Assembly: GCA_965655095.1 (NCBI GenBank)
Contig: OZ296650.1
Coordinates: 22,134,001 to 22,198,000 of the forward strand
Reading direction: 5' to 3'
Length of the DNA: 64,000 nt
From: Haplodiscus bocki
Taxonomy: Eukaryota
The translations under genes were made by a program, and so were the position numbers. The notes beneath the pieces are model-generated. The model searched no databases and had not been told where the DNA came from. It saw nothing but the letters and a program-made list of their open reading frames with translations. How positions within the stretch are numbered: the first letter of the stretch is position 1; each line of letters starts with the position of its first letter. Of the stretch, positions 3,311-19,284 are shown in pieces.

Positions 3311-3745
3311 AGTCAAGTAAAAAACCAAATTTGACTTCGGACGCCGCGTACGCAGATGTAAAACTTTACTATATCAATGAGGGTACACAGAAAATTATAT
3401 TAAAACAGTGAAACTTAGTGAAATTAATCCGAACAGGGTATCAATGGGAGTAAACAGGTATGATGATAAAAAACAAAAACTTAAATTTTCTAAAAAAACT
3501 TTATATGAACGATGGTTTTTACATAAATTTTTTCTGAAAGATTTATCAATGGGGGTACAAAACTTCATACAAATATACAATTCTAAGAACATACAATATC
3601 AATTCCAGGGTATGCTTTCAATTTCATTTACATAATATCGTGTGTCATCAAAAGGTGACAAACTGCCTTAACATACTTTTTTCAAGACACATTTCATGAT
3701 TAAAAGATTTCATAATATATTTATTACAATCTTTATCAAATTTGA
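3311..3745 (+). repeat. Left terminal inverted repeat of Polinton-like element
   Basis: 3321-3663 is the reverse complement of ~18923-19267 (manual alignment of 3328-3397: 11 mismatches in 70 nt). Weaker protein-level similarity continues to ~3745. The extreme left tip is eroded. Confidence 0.9.
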
Positions 3746-3776
3746 CTGTTATTACGAATATTCTTGTATAAATAAA

Positions 3777-4300
3777 ATGACTGATTGGTATTGTGAAGAT
3801 TCTGATACAACAAGATGTATAAAATCCAAAAGAGAACAACTTCGAAGTCTAACACACAGCGAATTTGGAAAATGTATATGATTAAAACACACTATTCAAA
3901 ATCCTAATTTTTTTGACAAAGATGATTTTTTTATTGAATATATCACTAACCACAATAAAAACTTCGATTTGCATCTCGTTAAAAATGCTTTTTAAATTGT
4001 TATTAATATTAGTAATAACAGTAATAACTTTACTCGACATATTAAATCTGAATTACGAAATAACTTATCAATATTTCTTTCAAAAAGATATTTATTACTT
4101 TGGAATGATTTTTTAATTAAAGAAGGATATGAAGTTTCTCATGAATTTGAAAGGAATATTATAACAAAAAAGCGATTAGAGATAGGACTTTTGCAATTTA
4201 TAATAACAAACCTGAATCTATTCTTAAATTGAAGCTAAGTGTGATAATTGAAGAAAATCTATATCTCCTAAATGCATTAGATTAGAAGTATTAATCAGCC
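3777..4300 (+). pseudogene. Viral ORF with N-terminal C2H2/U1-like zinc finger remnant (decayed)
   Basis: MTDWYCEDSDTTRCIKSKREQLRSLTH...HTIQNPNFFD...YITNHNKNFDL; resembles a CxxC...HLKSxxH finger; stops and frameshifts. Confidence 0.45.
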
Positions 4301-4864
4301 TTTAATTAGCAAAAAAGATCTCACACTCCGTCTTGAGAAAATGGAGGTTTGAAATAAACCTTTTATAATTTTTTTGCTAATCAAATAGATACGCATGCTG
4401 ATAATTGTAATTATAGTATTTGTAATTGTAATATTATAAAAAAAAATATTGTAATATTTGTGACAAAAATGTAATATCAGAGTATTATAATCAGCATTTG
4501 AAACCAATTACTTACACACATAACCTTAATGGAAATCAGTAAATAAATAATTTCACAACCAACACTTGATATAACCTTTTTTTAATTAATTCACTACCCA
4601 ATTTATGTGTTTCTTGCTAAAAAATCATTTTTAATTAAACTCAGAATTTCGTTAATCTAACTAAATACATCAAATATGTTATATGTATCTTTATCTAATT
4701 GCATCGACCATGTCTTAATTACTTCAAAGTTTTTCATAAAATCTTTGAAATTAGAAGATTTAGTATGCATTAAATCTAATTGATTAAGCATAATTAAAAT
4801 GTCTTCAATAGCTTTCATTAATTAAATAAAAAAAACAGAATTAAAATACATTCAATAGAAACGA

Positions 4865-5055
4865 ATGTGTTGAATATATCTAACGTTTATGTTAGCGAAA
4901 TTGAAACTGTACACTTCATACATGATGAAAACTATATCATTGCTATCATTTTTCCAACATTGCTCTTATCACTCCCAGGAGGGTTGCTATTTCTATCTTT
5001 TTTAAGTTTCACAATATGAAAAATGGTTAAACCGTTAAAAACTAATAAGTATTGG
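4865..5055 (+). pseudogene. Small single-pass membrane ORF of the virus-like element
   Basis: ...HDENYIIAIIFPTLLLSLPGGLLFLSFLSFTI*KMVKPLKTNK: acidic N-region, ~25-aa hydrophobic stretch, basic tail. Confidence 0.4.
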
Positions 5056-15340: not shown

Positions 15341-15459
15341 AGTAAAAACATCAAATATTTTGCTTTGTTTTGTAATATCATTTTAAATTTAACAGATGGA
15401 GGAGAATTTTTGGTTTCAAATAAATCATTTCAAGGTTTTCATATGAAAACTTTGGAAAT

Positions 15460-18400
15460 GCAAATTATAAATAGCCACAAAATAAGATGTGTGTAATATT
15501 GATATCCATAGAGCCTCAGTTGTAAAACCCTTGAAAAGCAAGAAGCATTTGGAAAAAGAAACAATTATTCGCACTATATTTTTCAATGAAACGGATGCAA
15601 CTAATAAAACCAAACGGAAAAAAACATAATTGCCTAAAAGAAATGTCCAGAGAAAAAATCAGTAGAGAAGATGAACAATTAAATAAGAAAAGTGCTTAAA
15701 AACTGAATCATTGTAATCTTTTTGCCTATAAAAAGTTAGAAGTTGGTGATAATTTTCATTTAGATAGTCATCAAGTCAATCATATAAATTCTAAAACAAC
15801 CATTCCACCAAAATATTTAGAAATTGAATAAAAACGTGGTAATATTAAAGTAAATAAAATGTCTAATATGCATGCAAGATTTTTCAACCAATATATATAA
15901 ATATCAGACAGTGTTTTCAGCAATATTTGTTAAACAGGATGAAGATGATCAAGTACTAGATTAAATTGAAATATAAAGTTTTTTAATTATTAATCAAAAT
16001 GAAAAGAGGTTGATTTTGATAGTATTGACATTCGATCTCAATTAGAAAGACAATCAAGAGATGAAGGATGGTGGTTCAAGATTTCATAACATTAACTGAA
16101 TGACAATAATTTTCCATTAAACTACCGCAAAAAACGGTTCCAGTCATGTAAAAACTCCATTAAGAAGTTCAGCTTGTTTCAATATTGTAAACGCTGACAA
16201 ACACTGTTTCATTCGGTCAATCTAAGCGCACCTTCATCCTCGTGACAATAGTACTTCTATTAGAGTATCAAATTATATGCAATAATTTAATGAATTAAAC
16301 ATTGATGAATTTCATTTTTCAAATGGACTTAGACGTAGTGATGTCTACAAGCTTGAGAATTTGGAAAGTTTTCTATAAACCTATTTGAACCGAGTTTTTA
16401 TCAAGACGAAAATGATTGGTAAAACTAATTATTTCCTCTCAAATTTAGTAAAAAATTGTTCAGAAGGTGTTATTGACTTGATGATATATAAAAATCAATA
16501 AAATGTAATGAAAAAGTTCCATGCACTTTTAGGTGAAAAGGGANNNNNNNNNNNNNNNNNNNNNNNNNNNNNNNNNNNNNNNNNNNNNNNNNNNNNNNNN
16601 NNNNNNNNNNNNNNNNNNNNNNNNNNNNNNNNNNNNNNNNNNNNNNNNNNNNNNNNNNNNNNNNNNNNNNNNNNNNNNNNNNNNNNNNNNNNNNNNNNNN
16701 NNNNNNNNNNNNNNNNNNNNNNNNNNNNNNNNNNNNNNNNNNNGGACCATTGTCTTTTAATGGGTAAATATAGAGGACCAGCACATCACAAATGTGATAT
16801 AAAAACCAAACAGAAACAAAGCAACTTTATTTCATTTCCGTTTCATAATTTCAGTAGTTTTGATTGTCATCTATTCTTCAAAAAATTCCTTGATAAAAGG
16901 AAATTTAATGTTAAACTAGAATTTATTGCAAAAACAAATGAGGAGTATATATCAGTATCCTAAGTTTGTATACGATTCATAGGAAATTAATGATTTTTAT
17001 CAAATAGTTTAGATAATTTAGTTATATCATTTATTGAAGTCAAACAAAAAACATTTAACATTGTTCAAAAATACTTTCTTGATATTGACATTATATTAAA
17101 TGACGTTATAGAATTTGAAGTTCTTATCAACGAAAATATAAACGAAAATGATTACATTGAGACTTTCAAGAAAGAAATCCCAGATAAAATAGAAAAAATG
17201 GAAGAAGCTATTTATGATCATACGTCTGAAAATACTTCTCTCAAAGATTTGAAAGATGAATTTCCTGAAAATTGGAAGTTTTTATCCAGAAAAATTAGCT
17301 TATGTTTATGAATATTTCAAAAGTATTGAAGATTATAAGTTACCTGTTAGCAATTTTTAAAAAGAAGACTTTTTTATTGAATGAAAATGTTGCTGCCCCA
17401 ATGATGAAGAAAAAGAACGAACAAAAAAAGTATTGAAGTATTTAAAACGAAAAATGGAAAAAAAAACTAATTGAAATCTATTTAAAACTTGATATACGTT
17501 TAATAACAGTTGCATCGAAAATTTTTTAAAGTTTCAAGAAACGAATGTAAAATCAATGTTTCTTGATATGTGAGCTTACCTAGATGTACGTGGCAATGTG
17601 GATTGAAATATAGTGATGTTAAACTCCGAACACCTCAAGAGAAAGATATAATACTATTACTTGAAAATAAATTCTTGGGGGTATAAACAGTGTCATGGGG
17701 AGTAGATATGTAAAAACAGATGAAAATAAAAAGATATGATTTATAGATGCAAAAAATCTTTATGGTTGGGCGATGTTTCAGTTACTACCCTCTGATGAAA
17801 TTAAATTTGATAAAAAGTTTGAACTAGAAGATATTTTGATTGTTTGTGATGATTCAGATATTGGATATTTTGTAAAATAACATTTAAAAAAATCTGATGC
17901 TGAAATAAATAGAAAAACAAGAAATTTCACACTTTGCCCCGAAAACAAAGTTACGCAACAAGATTTGTCTAGATGTTATATGAATAAAACAAGAACGAAT
18001 ACTTTTATACCATGTAACCAACTATTTTGTGATTGGACTGATAACAAAGAATGTTTGTAAAACTACAGATTGTTGAATTTTTATGTTAGACATGGTATGG
18101 TTGTTGGGGACGTTCATAATGTAATTTGCTTCAAACAGAGTGATTGGTTACAGAAATATAAAAACTTTAATACTCAAAAAAATAGAAACAAATCAACAAA
18201 TGTTTTCGAAAAGTTTTTTATATAATTTATTAGTTAACAGTTTTTTTGGTAAAACAAGGGAGAACAAAAAAAAGAATGTAAGTAGAATTCTTTTAAAAAA
18301 TTAATGATGATGAAATGTTGAAGACGCAATCAAAACTAACCTTTAATGGTATTCAGAAATCGTATGAAAAATTTGATGGCTAAATGTTTAAACAAAAGGA

Positions 18401-18987
18401 GATGCTAATGGATAAACCAATAAATCTCGGTTTCAGTGTATTGGAAATATCAAAAGTACTAATGTATGAAACATATTATGATAAGTTACAACCATATTTT
18501 GGAGAAATCAATCTAGAGCCATATTCTATGGATACTGATTGCTTTGTAGTAAGCATAAATACAAATGATGTTTTTAAAGACTTATATAATCTCAAAGACT
18601 CATTCAATTTCAGTAATTTAAATAAAGAACACCAAGTATTCAGTATTGATTGAAAAAAGTGGTTGGTATATTAAAAATTGAAAACCCCTAAAAGTATTTG
18701 GATAGATAAATTTATATGTCTAAGAAGTAAAGCATATTCATTTAAATGTGCAAATGATCGGCAAAAAATTTGAAAAATATTTCTTAATCATTACCAAAAA
18801 CTAATAAATTGGAAGAAGATTATACTTGTTTGTTCGGAGGACAATATCAAAAGTAATGTGGTAATTACATTACAAAACCTATTAGTCGTGAAATGTATCT
18901 TCAAAATGTAAGTAAAAATAGTGTTTGTCACCTTTTGATGATAAACGACATTATATAAATGAAATTGAAAGCATACTTTGGAATTGA
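15460..18987 (+). pseudogene. Protein-primed family B DNA polymerase (pPolB) with EndoVII-like insert (decayed)
   Basis: DHCLLMGKYRGPAHHKC (EndoVII-like), FHNFSSFDCHLF (Exo II), IYLKLDI (Exo III), IDAKNLYGWAM (motif A), FFGKT (motif B remnant), KPINLGFSVLEISKVLMY...YSMDTDCF (motif C), C-terminal SPFDDKR. Interrupted by a 200-N gap. Confidence 0.95.
16544..16743. other. Assembly gap (200 N)
   Basis: Run of N inside pPolB. Confidence 0.99.
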
Positions 18988-19284
18988 TTTTGTATGTTCT
19001 CAGAATTGTAAAAGTTTATGAAGTTGTGTACCCCCATTGATACATTATTCAGAAAAAATTTATGTAATAAAGATCTTTCATATAAAATAATTTTTATAAA
19101 ATTTAAGTTTTCCTTTTTTATCATCATACCTGTGTACTCCCATAAATACACTATTCAGATTAGTTTCACTTGAATTTTTTTGTTTTATTATAATATCCTG
19201 TGTACCCCCTTTGATGTAGTAAATTTTTACATGTACCTCCGCGGCGTCTGAAGTCAAATTCAGTTTTAGACACTGCTCACTACT
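18840..19284 (-). repeat. Right terminal inverted repeat of Polinton-like element
   Basis: Reverse complement of the left TIR; terminates in ACTACT at 19284; overlaps the 3' end of pPolB. Confidence 0.9.

Follow-up and report, generated by a model that had tools for sequence, protein, structure and literature searches.

The window, a stretch of 64,000 nucleotides, contains an AT-rich element of about 16 kb (positions 3311-19284) with inverted repeats of ∼415-435 bp at both ends. The two arms (3321-3734 and 18850-19267) lie 16 kb apart and are 82 to 84% identical over 407 to 420 alignment columns (E = 9e-114), bearing out the long terminal inverted repeats (TIRs) claimed by an earlier sequence-only reading; their divergence of 16 to 18% corresponds to a K2P distance of 0.19. 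G+C content is 24 to 31% within the element versus 32 to 44% in the flanks, and neither a Pfam match nor any hint of a single interrupted repeat turned up in the flanks (1-3300 and 19285-28200). A BAZ1/ACF1-like gene lies near the element and marks the sequence as eukaryotic. The right end carries a terminus of the (AGT)2//(ACT)2 type, which with (AG)3//(CT)3 is characteristic of Polintons. The outermost ∼17 nt of the left TIR are eroded and do not align to the right arm, which places the left end only to about 3304-3320; the AGTAGT-type terminus reported earlier thus holds at the right end and not at the left. With the left terminus not placeable, a 6-bp target-site duplication, expected of intact insertions, was not found at 28 candidate left ends (best match 4 of 6).

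About 19 gene remnants, a count made partly by eye, lie head to tail within the element, nearly all on the forward strand; the arrangement described previously stands, and the number exceeds the ∼15 given then. The features are as follows.

3311..3734, no strand: left TIR, aligned with the right arm from 3321 on
3593..3775, -: final ∼50 pPolB codons in inverted copy (tblastn, residues ∼1166-1218, E down to 3e-9)
3777..4232, +: accessory ORF remnant, ∼150 codons (coding z+ 5.1)
4480..5010, -: possible ORF remnant, weak (coding z- 3.0 vs. z+ 1.1; no family match)
5020..5781, +: A32/FtsK-type packaging ATPase remnant (Pfam Pox_A32, E = 9e-4)
5783..6660, +: ORF X remnant, with conservation of its C-terminal part next to mCP, on the upstream side
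6671..7458, +: probable minor capsid (penton, mCP) gene remnant (relatives, ∼50% identity over the full length)
7460..7680, + (ambiguous): remnant of a small ORF that separates mCP from MCP, in the PW position (by eye)
7677..8940, +: double-jelly-roll (DJR) major capsid protein (MCP) remnant (relatives, PF21738, fold searches)
8963..9335, +: probable adenain-like cysteine protease remnant (two motifs in the expected order)
9337..10910, +: long Asn/Asp-rich ORF remnant, possibly fibre-like (PHROG matches; coding z+ 6.2-6.4)
10950..12680, +: four small accessory ORF remnants (by eye; coding z+ 2.7-3.9)
12710..13335, +: stand-alone HNH/endonuclease-VII-like nuclease remnant (PHROG, motif)
13330..14177, +: retroviral-type (rve, DDE) integrase remnant (Pfam rve, E = 1.2e-6)
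14181..15490, +: at least three small accessory ORF remnants preceding pPolB (by eye; coding z+ 3.2-6.2)
15486..18987, +: pPolB remnant (relatives, collinear tblastn, motifs)
16544..16743, no strand: assembly gap of exactly 200 N, replacing ∼500 nt of pPolB
18850..19284, no strand: right TIR, ending in ACTACT (19279-19284) and overlapping the pPolB 3′ end

Coding signal and decay of the gene remnants

A crude coding score favors the forward strand in 20 of 22 internal segments, in agreement with the earlier statement that almost all genes lie on that strand; z values below 3 say little, since flank controls reach 2.5 to 5. The exceptions are 4240-4480 and 4480-5010, the latter being the sole gene-sized candidate opposite to the main direction. 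For 7460..7680 the raw score favors the forward strand and z the reverse.

The longest N-free stop-to-stop frame spans 150 codons (10263-10715), slightly exceeding the limit of ∼130 aa set earlier for any intact viral ORF; the next spans 128. Only one of 42 six-frame pieces gave a good Pfam match (rve), and "hidden from ORF calling" is thus a fair description; single-frame protein searches matched relatives at once (best E values 2e-37, 7e-30, and 2e-59). The closest sequences found belong to an ENA Polinton family (P0002-P0120), with 42 to 59% identity gene by gene; alignment with these natural relatives runs from one end to the other for pPolB, MCP, and the mCP candidate. All three genes measured are disabled, with 3.3 to 4.9 breaks (stops or frameshifts) per 100 codons, and we therefore regard the copy as a fossil. 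That the region might instead be a host-domesticated viral sequence with a present function is barely credible given this density of breaks and the shortness of the open frames, and no supporting evidence for it was found.

Among the accessory ORFs, 3777..4232 has an N-terminal Cys/His pattern that by eye resembles a decayed zinc finger; it has no Pfam, PHROG, or NCBIfam match. Its derivation from the pPolB zinc finger was considered and rejected, as the two have no similarity. One of the four ORFs in 10950..12680 has a hydrophobic stretch and another has four Cys residues; neither these ORFs nor those in 14181..15490 gave a credible family match. Within 9470-9742, the long ORF at 9337..10910 matches two PHROG profiles, tail protein (E = 6e-5) and, more weakly, tail fibre (E = 1.6e-3), over ∼25 to 28 residues; the fibre label proposed before is kept as a lead only. 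The N-terminal part of the nuclease remnant matches PHROG endonuclease VII (E = 2.5e-6) and HNH (E = 3e-4) and is accompanied by the motif EIDHEKP at 13135. The rve match of the integrase, made on a decayed frame, scores 29.1 bits (cut-off 32.6), and IS481/IS3 NCBIfam models match at E ∼1e-5.

Polymerase continuity across the assembly gap

The search with pPolB returned 86 relatives; identity in the alignment of the remnant with relatives is 48 to 59%. The tblastn alignment is collinear through residues 7 to 366 and again from residue 535 to the end; the gap swallows residues ∼367 to 534 of ∼1214 to 1280, equal to ∼168 codons or ∼500 nt. Motifs A, B, and C and the exonuclease motif are present in the window, and 15 of the 16 relatives of at least 1180 aa have all five motifs checked. 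DNA_pol_B_2 scores above its cut-off in the relative P0092 (PF03175, E = 1.7e-16) and PF03175 has no match in P0041; 23 of the 86 carry it in precomputed annotation. The Cys motif NADKHCF at 16190 is the sole OTU sign, and the putative vOTU label of this domain follows PMC11161782. An intein is present in 3 of the 86 relatives. The inverted copy of the polymerase end at 3593..3775 lies partly in the left TIR and partly just beyond it.

Scaffolding could have joined two Polinton copies across the gap, making the "complete genome" a chimera: the family is highly repeated, the N run is a round 200 where ∼500 nt are missing, the TIRs differ by 16 to 18%, and no target-site duplication was found. 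The polymerase nevertheless keeps its order and strand across the gap without overlap, and the two sides match in break rate (41 in 996 codons on the left vs. 24 in 731 on the right; Fisher p = 0.44) and G+C content (27.9% vs. 26.5%). Stop density (2.0 to 2.6 per 100 codons) also agrees with TIR divergence, being near the 1.2 to 2.1 expected for ∼9% divergence of each TIR after insertion. A chimera is therefore rather improbable, and the sequences flanking the gap fit one element; their belonging to different loci had been named as a refutation in the sequence-only reading. The word "complete" was an overstatement, with ∼500 nt of pPolB in the gap, AGTAGT at the right end only, and no target-site duplication found.

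The spacing from the exonuclease motif to motif A is ∼300 codons in the window, which is the long variant (289 to 309 codons in 25 of 58 relatives; 235 to 236 in the other 33). In a pPolB tree of 81 rows with no named references, from which 6 of the 86 relatives were dropped for having <150 aligned residues, the window piece sits unplaced on a long branch (0.97), while the relatives lie close together (median end branch 0.05). Because this branch exceeds what ∼9% decay explains, the element probably belongs to a sister subfamily of P0002-P0120.

Capsid block and virion module

Pox_A32 is the sole match of the ATPase piece (19.2 bits, under the cut-off of 22.8), and a Walker-A-like TSECGK is present at 5103. 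In 5 of 150 representative proteins, the C-terminal part of the adjoining ORF X immediately precedes mCP, an adjacency shared with the ENA family. Identity to P0140 is 49% (E = 4e-11); the Atlas yielded no usable match for the homologue P0161. By position, ORF X may stand in the place that PM/PZ takes after the ATPase in vertebrate Mavericks, and we take its C-terminal motif to resemble PZ.

The mCP remnant carries 6 stops and 3 frameshifts over 257 aligned codons and has 20 relatives, with 2465 representatives at E ≤ 0.001. A distant relative, P0266, matches viral clusters at 0.97, Nucleocytoviricota being commonest; DUF5901, the only named family among its Atlas look-alikes and presumably linked to pentons, had no mention in the literature searched. 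Folding of the penton model is partial (pLDDT 55); its residues ∼48 to 162 align to the mavirus penton (Z 4.0; rmsd 3.9 over 92 residues), and the best VIA scores (Z 4.0 to 4.4) are tied with flagellar FliD. Foldseek found nothing for this model at E ≤ 0.001 in PDB or BFVD; as the model core is unfolded, this does not count against a jelly roll. We consider it likely that 6671..7458 is the penton gene.

The MCP remnant (alignment 7677-8914) has 5 stops and 8 to 10 frameshifts in ∼390 codons and aligns at 46%. Of its 13 relatives, 11 carry PF21738; in the relative P0003 this DJR-like_dom scores above cut-off (E = 4.7e-14). The MCP model is poor (pLDDT 36), yet PBCV-1 and iridovirus capsid chains fill all of the top 10 Foldseek rows (best E = 7e-5), and the top 4 VIA rows are the MCPs of faustovirus, African swine fever virus (ASFV), mavirus, and adenovirus (Z 5.0 to 5.9); TM-scores are low (0.18 to 0.24). 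For the MCP part of 6671-8940, family membership and top-ranked DJR MCPs thus speak against the refuting outcome named at the outset, ORFs that do not fold as single or double jelly rolls. In the canonical place after MCP, the protease remnant shows YVDSSSG (9143) followed by QDTHIKLCGYFC (9228), found with patterns written after the sequence had been seen; its catalytic-His position is seemingly altered. Support for the earlier protease label comes from these ordered motifs; there was no Pfam match and, for two pieces, no relevant PDB match. PDB sequence searches with the MCP, mCP, and pPolB profiles gave 0 matches.

With pPolB, an rve integrase, an A32-like ATPase, a DJR MCP, a probable penton, and a probable protease, the proposed Polinton/adintovirus-like identity with a virion module is upheld. 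We are confident, short of certainty, that the locus is a single Polinton (Maverick; polintovirus) of ∼16.3 kb, which entered the host chromosome by integration, has since decayed neutrally, and is functionless now. Mavirus also combines pPolB with a retroviral-type integrase, and the fold matches include its MCP and penton. Virophages of the mavirus type have a pPolB from which most of the exonuclease domain is missing and encode a separate helicase. A mavirus-like virophage or Polinton-like virus is nonetheless very improbable: both the window and the relatives have the exonuclease motif, a profile search of the six-frame pieces found no helicase remnant, and the MCP is of ∼420 aa and family PF21738.

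By analogy with the family, the pPolB polyprotein of such a Polinton (terminal protein, vOTU protease, exonuclease, and polymerase) would prime replication of a linear genome from its inverted termini, and the integrase would insert it in host DNA. The ATPase would load the genome into an icosahedral shell, built from double-jelly-roll hexons together with pentons; the cysteine protease would mature this shell, and the fibre-like protein would serve attachment. From this gene content we infer that the ancestor of the copy formed virions. Alternatively, the ancestor spread only within cells as a self-synthesizing transposon, with capsid genes that were relics or acted in trans; Maverick particles have not been observed, according to PMC8097293, and virion formation is here read from genes alone. 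We judge this unlikely. Full-length relatives exist for both MCP (418 to 423 aa in 7 of 13) and mCP (260 to 270 aa in 11 of 20), and in the window copy the density of breaks is no higher in the capsid genes than in the polymerase, so that the capsid genes were intact at insertion.

Relation to known Polintons

The Polinton described here may be of the Beta adintovirus type, which we take to be marked by PF21738 hexons and endonuclease-VII-bearing PolBs. Shared with Beta "adintoviruses" are a putative OTU-PolB, integrase, FtsK-type ATPase, probable penton, hexon, and probable adenain, together with a pfam03175 score that is weak or absent in most of the 86 relatives; some, such as P0092, score well. 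Panel labels in Starrett et al. 2021 give a penton-cupiennin-hexon-adenain block (PMC8502044). Further Beta marks in that study are a PolB <30% identical to the pfam03175 (Alpha) type, GasderminX and cupiennin genes, and clustering with Terrapene hexon, penton, and PolB; the remnants identified here include neither of those two genes.

Vertebrate Mavericks, of which 96% of loci were degraded in one survey, range from 12.7 to 24.6 kb with a mean TIR of 402 bp (PMC8097293); the window element, at 16 kb with TIRs of ∼430 bp, lies within the published range. It shares with them the core genes (pPolB, integrase, ATPase, probable mCP, MCP, and probable protease), the order mCP-small ORF-MCP-protease, and, at its right end only, the (AGT)2//(ACT)2 end type (PMC8097293). 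In contrast to the vertebrate elements as described in that survey, the integrase is not beside mCP, pPolB is not beside the ATPase, and no target-site duplication was found; integrase and pPolB lie at the far end, after the fibre-like gene, small ORFs, and the HNH gene. The gene order, called unusual before, departs from theirs in this displacement; the capsid block is canonical, and in Xenopus tropicalis both modules run along one strand (PMC8097293). The accessory set is also less unusual than first stated, fibre and endonuclease genes being known Polinton accessories (10.1101/2023.08.22.554363). Such genes are shared, by description only, with nematode, mollusc, and oomycete Polintons, in which nuclease domains are inserted in pPolB (Jeong et al. 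2023, 10.1101/2023.08.22.554363).

Two scans of bacterial and archaeal genome contigs with the MCP and pPolB alignments found no intact copies, and a phage collection had no match to P0003 or P0041. A literature search for Polintons (Mavericks) in Xenacoelomorpha, including acoels and Symsagittifera, found no study of such elements; a table in PMC6451197 gives Mavericks as 4.5% of one acoel genome. Polintons are well known and their fossils common, as attested by a set of 960 genomes with 20,702 pPolB1 genes linked to an integrase (10.1101/2023.08.22.554363), and the element is one more degraded Polinton among thousands. What may be undescribed is the sub-lineage with its displaced integrase and polymerase. 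We tentatively raise the possibility, itself somewhat doubtful, that it is the fossil of an undescribed host-restricted polintovirus clade. The genome of this clade would be permuted, with nearly all genes in one direction: the ATPase and the capsid block lead, the integrase and the polymerase close the order, and the polymerase end lies inside the TIR. Its sister family still retains numerous open full-length genes, and some copies bear a canonical LAGLIDADG intein at motif C of the polymerase.

The element is an example of fossils that escape ORF and Pfam annotation. Its relatives in public contigs form a family, large and young, whose capsid and polymerase genes are open; there the Polinton virion question could be tested. 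The intein-bearing polymerases among them may be the more surprising lead; if true, a full intein would reside inside a resident of an apparently animal nuclear genome.

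Boundaries and continuity of the element

Window 3311-19284 is a genuine Polinton, now decayed, whose virion module can still be recognised. It forms an AT-rich block (G+C of 24 to 31% inside and 32 to 44% outside) and, as the sequence-only reading had it, is bounded by terminal inverted repeats (TIRs). Two features define its layout:

3321-3734: alignable part of the left TIR, pairing with 18850-19267 (82 to 84% identity, E 9e-114, K2P 0.19)
16544-16743: assembly gap of exactly 200 N

The right arm ends in ACTACT (19279-19284), the (AGT)2//(ACT)2 end type given for Mavericks in the excerpted text of PMC8097293; the AGTAGT-type terminus claimed earlier thus holds on the right but not on the left, where the outer ∼17 nt are lost or altered. 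The left junction (3303-3313) opens with a 7-mer that recurs at the right terminus, and part of it is palindromic; both features are close to what chance would give. The TIR takes in the last ∼45 to 50 codons of the protein-primed family-B polymerase (pPolB; 3593-3775, minus strand, and 18850-18987, plus strand), so the left TIR carries an inverted copy of the gene end.

Left of the gap the element matches residues 7 through 366 of pPolB, and right of it residue 535 onwards, collinear and with no overlap; as ∼168 codons are missing, the 200 N are a placeholder. With these codons gone, the left end altered and a 6-bp target-site duplication absent at all 28 candidate left ends (best match 4/6), the claim of a complete genome goes too far. 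The missing duplication, together with a family rich in repeats, would also suit two copies joined at the gap as a scaffold chimera. We consider this unlikely, since the pPolB order continues across the gap and both sides match in breaks (stops plus frameshifts; 41/996 codons left vs. 24/731 right, Fisher p 0.44) and in G+C (27.9% vs. 26.5%). Stop density, 2.0 (frameshift-aware) to 2.6 (single frames) per 100 codons, is likewise near the 1.2 to 2.1 predicted for TIRs that began identical and have each diverged by ∼9% since insertion. Collinearity, equal breaks and G+C, and stop density agree with one old insertion without proving it.

Elsewhere in the window, 36831-42613 (minus strand) holds pieces of a host gene whose combination of DDT, WSD and PHD domains is BAZ1/ACF1-like, and 61819-63999 (minus strand) holds, judged by eye, a Gag-like remnant of a probable LTR retrotransposon. 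P0250, a minor capsid (mCP) fragment, continues into sequence at most 67% identical to 62072-61956, which suggests that its source genome shares the LTR repeat family. Degenerate direct repeats ∼180 nt apart at 21607-22919, with no Pfam match, may stem from a repeat-protein gene in decay or from a satellite. There are also an inverted, MITE-like pair of 16-bp tandem arrays (24127-24606), a 59-bp array (44278-44501) and a 121-bp satellite (50525-51475). A decayed plus-strand frame at ∼27000-28000 has no Pfam match; by eye we take it to resemble a LINE endonuclease remnant.

Replication and integration genes

The genes are hidden from ORF calling, as had been proposed: the longest N-free open frames span 150 and 128 codons, and a six-frame Pfam scan of 42 long pieces, with stops as X, gave one good match, the retroviral-type integrase (rve). 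Ordinary annotation would therefore miss nearly everything. Of 22 internal segments, 20 scored better on the plus strand by a crude coding measure, upholding the co-oriented layout, with one weak minus-strand candidate at 4480-5010; ∼10 small, unnamed ORFs accompany the named genes.

A search with the polymerase frame picked out 86 proteins from 219 candidates. Sixteen of the 86 are at least 1180 aa long, and 15 of these carry all five checked motifs. The integrase piece matches rve (E 1.2e-6) and the ATPase piece Pox_A32 (E 9e-4), both below the curated cut-offs, as expected for decayed half-genes. These matches, the pPolB and major capsid (MCP) relatives and the TIRs bear out the Polinton/adintovirus-like identification. 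The HNH label rests on matches to endonuclease VII (E 2.5e-6) and HNH (E 3e-4). At 16990-17200, the exonuclease region of pPolB is of the long type, with ∼300 codons separating the motifs, as in 25/58 relatives; the other 33 have the short form.

Of the 86 polymerase relatives, 60 extend as far as motif C, and three of the 86 carry an insert there whose first residue is Ser. In P0062 and P0114 it spans 347 to 348 aa, ends in His-Asn followed by the motif's Thr, and contains intein and LAGLIDADG domains over Pfam cut-offs; the sequence of P0035 stops within the insert. The window's copy lacks it. We found no paper describing an intein at motif C of Polinton pPolB in the literature searched; the excerpts of PMC11161782 infer intein invasions from the nuclease domains of Polinton polymerases.

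Major capsid gene and candidate penton, protease and fibre genes

A search with one frame of the MCP region picked out 13 proteins from 517 candidates, and 11 of them contain the double-jelly-roll domain PF21738. The MCP relative P0003 is 46% identical to window 7677-8900 and passes the PF21738 cut-off (E 4.7e-14). Its AlphaFold model is poor (pLDDT 36); even so, all ten of the best-ranked Foldseek rows are capsid chains of PBCV-1 or iridovirus (best E 7e-5, at a low TM of ∼0.2), and the top four VIA matches are the MCPs of faustovirus, ASFV, mavirus and adenovirus (Z 5.0 to 5.9), with unrelated beta-sandwiches just beneath.

For the mCP (penton) candidate, 20 of 188 retrieved candidates proved to be close relatives, and 2465 representatives matched at E ≤ 0.001; its family is thus very widespread. 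P0266, the most distant of the 150 representatives listed (33% identity to the mCP relative P0016), resembles viral clusters, most often Nucleocytoviricota (score 0.97). The mCP model (pLDDT 55, core unfolded) gave no Foldseek match at E ≤ 0.001. VIA paired its residues ∼48 through 162 with the mavirus penton (Z 4.0, rmsd 3.9, 92 residues, 15% identity) and also with single capsid chains of PBCV-1 and EhV-201, which we take to be pentons; flagellar FliD tied with these.

The protease candidate lies immediately after MCP, with two motifs in the expected order; the patterns were composed with the sequence already seen, so their low shuffle rates are optimistic, and its pieces had no database match. 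Short PHROG matches to tail (E 6e-5) and tail-fibre (E 1.6e-3) proteins underlie the fibre label.

Relation to known Polintons and proposed working

In the excerpts of PMC8097293, 96% of vertebrate Maverick loci are degraded, intact ones measure 12.7 to 24.6 kb with a mean TIR of 402 bp, integrase, mCP, PW, MCP and protease follow one another in the second module, and Xenopus tropicalis Mavericks have both modules on one strand. The element shares with them the order of probable mCP, small ORF, MCP and probable protease, as well as the ATPase-unknown ORF pair; it differs in that integrase and polymerase are shifted to its far end. Genes for fibres and endonucleases are reported as accessories of other Polintons (10.1101/2023.08.22.554363, in part). 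The co-oriented layout and accessory types, earlier called unusual, have these precedents; the displaced integrase and polymerase, and the putative lineage, may be undescribed. The element may belong with the Beta adintoviruses (PMC8502044, excerpts), which it resembles. Its gene order was not found in the literature text searched, and term searches of the coral study PMC11131425 yielded no gene-order information; the order may already be in print in figures.

The nearest sequences form a tight family, to which the window piece is at most 59% identical, on a long unplaced branch of the tree; this suggests a sister subfamily. Searches of phage records and prokaryotic genome contigs turned up no relatives.

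The sequence itself shows which genes are present, their order, the termini and the decay. From family knowledge, a TP-vOTU-exonuclease-polymerase polyprotein, an architecture taken from excerpts of PMC11161782 and of whose vOTU region the Cys motif alone is seen in the window, would drive protein-primed replication; the rve integrase would mediate integration, the ATPase packaging into a jelly-roll capsid, and the protease maturation. Breaks are no denser in the capsid genes (3.5 and 3.8 per 100 codons) than in the polymerase (3.3 to 4.9), so the capsid genes were intact at the time of insertion. The copy is dead; the intactness of its capsid genes at that time favours a virion-capable ancestor.
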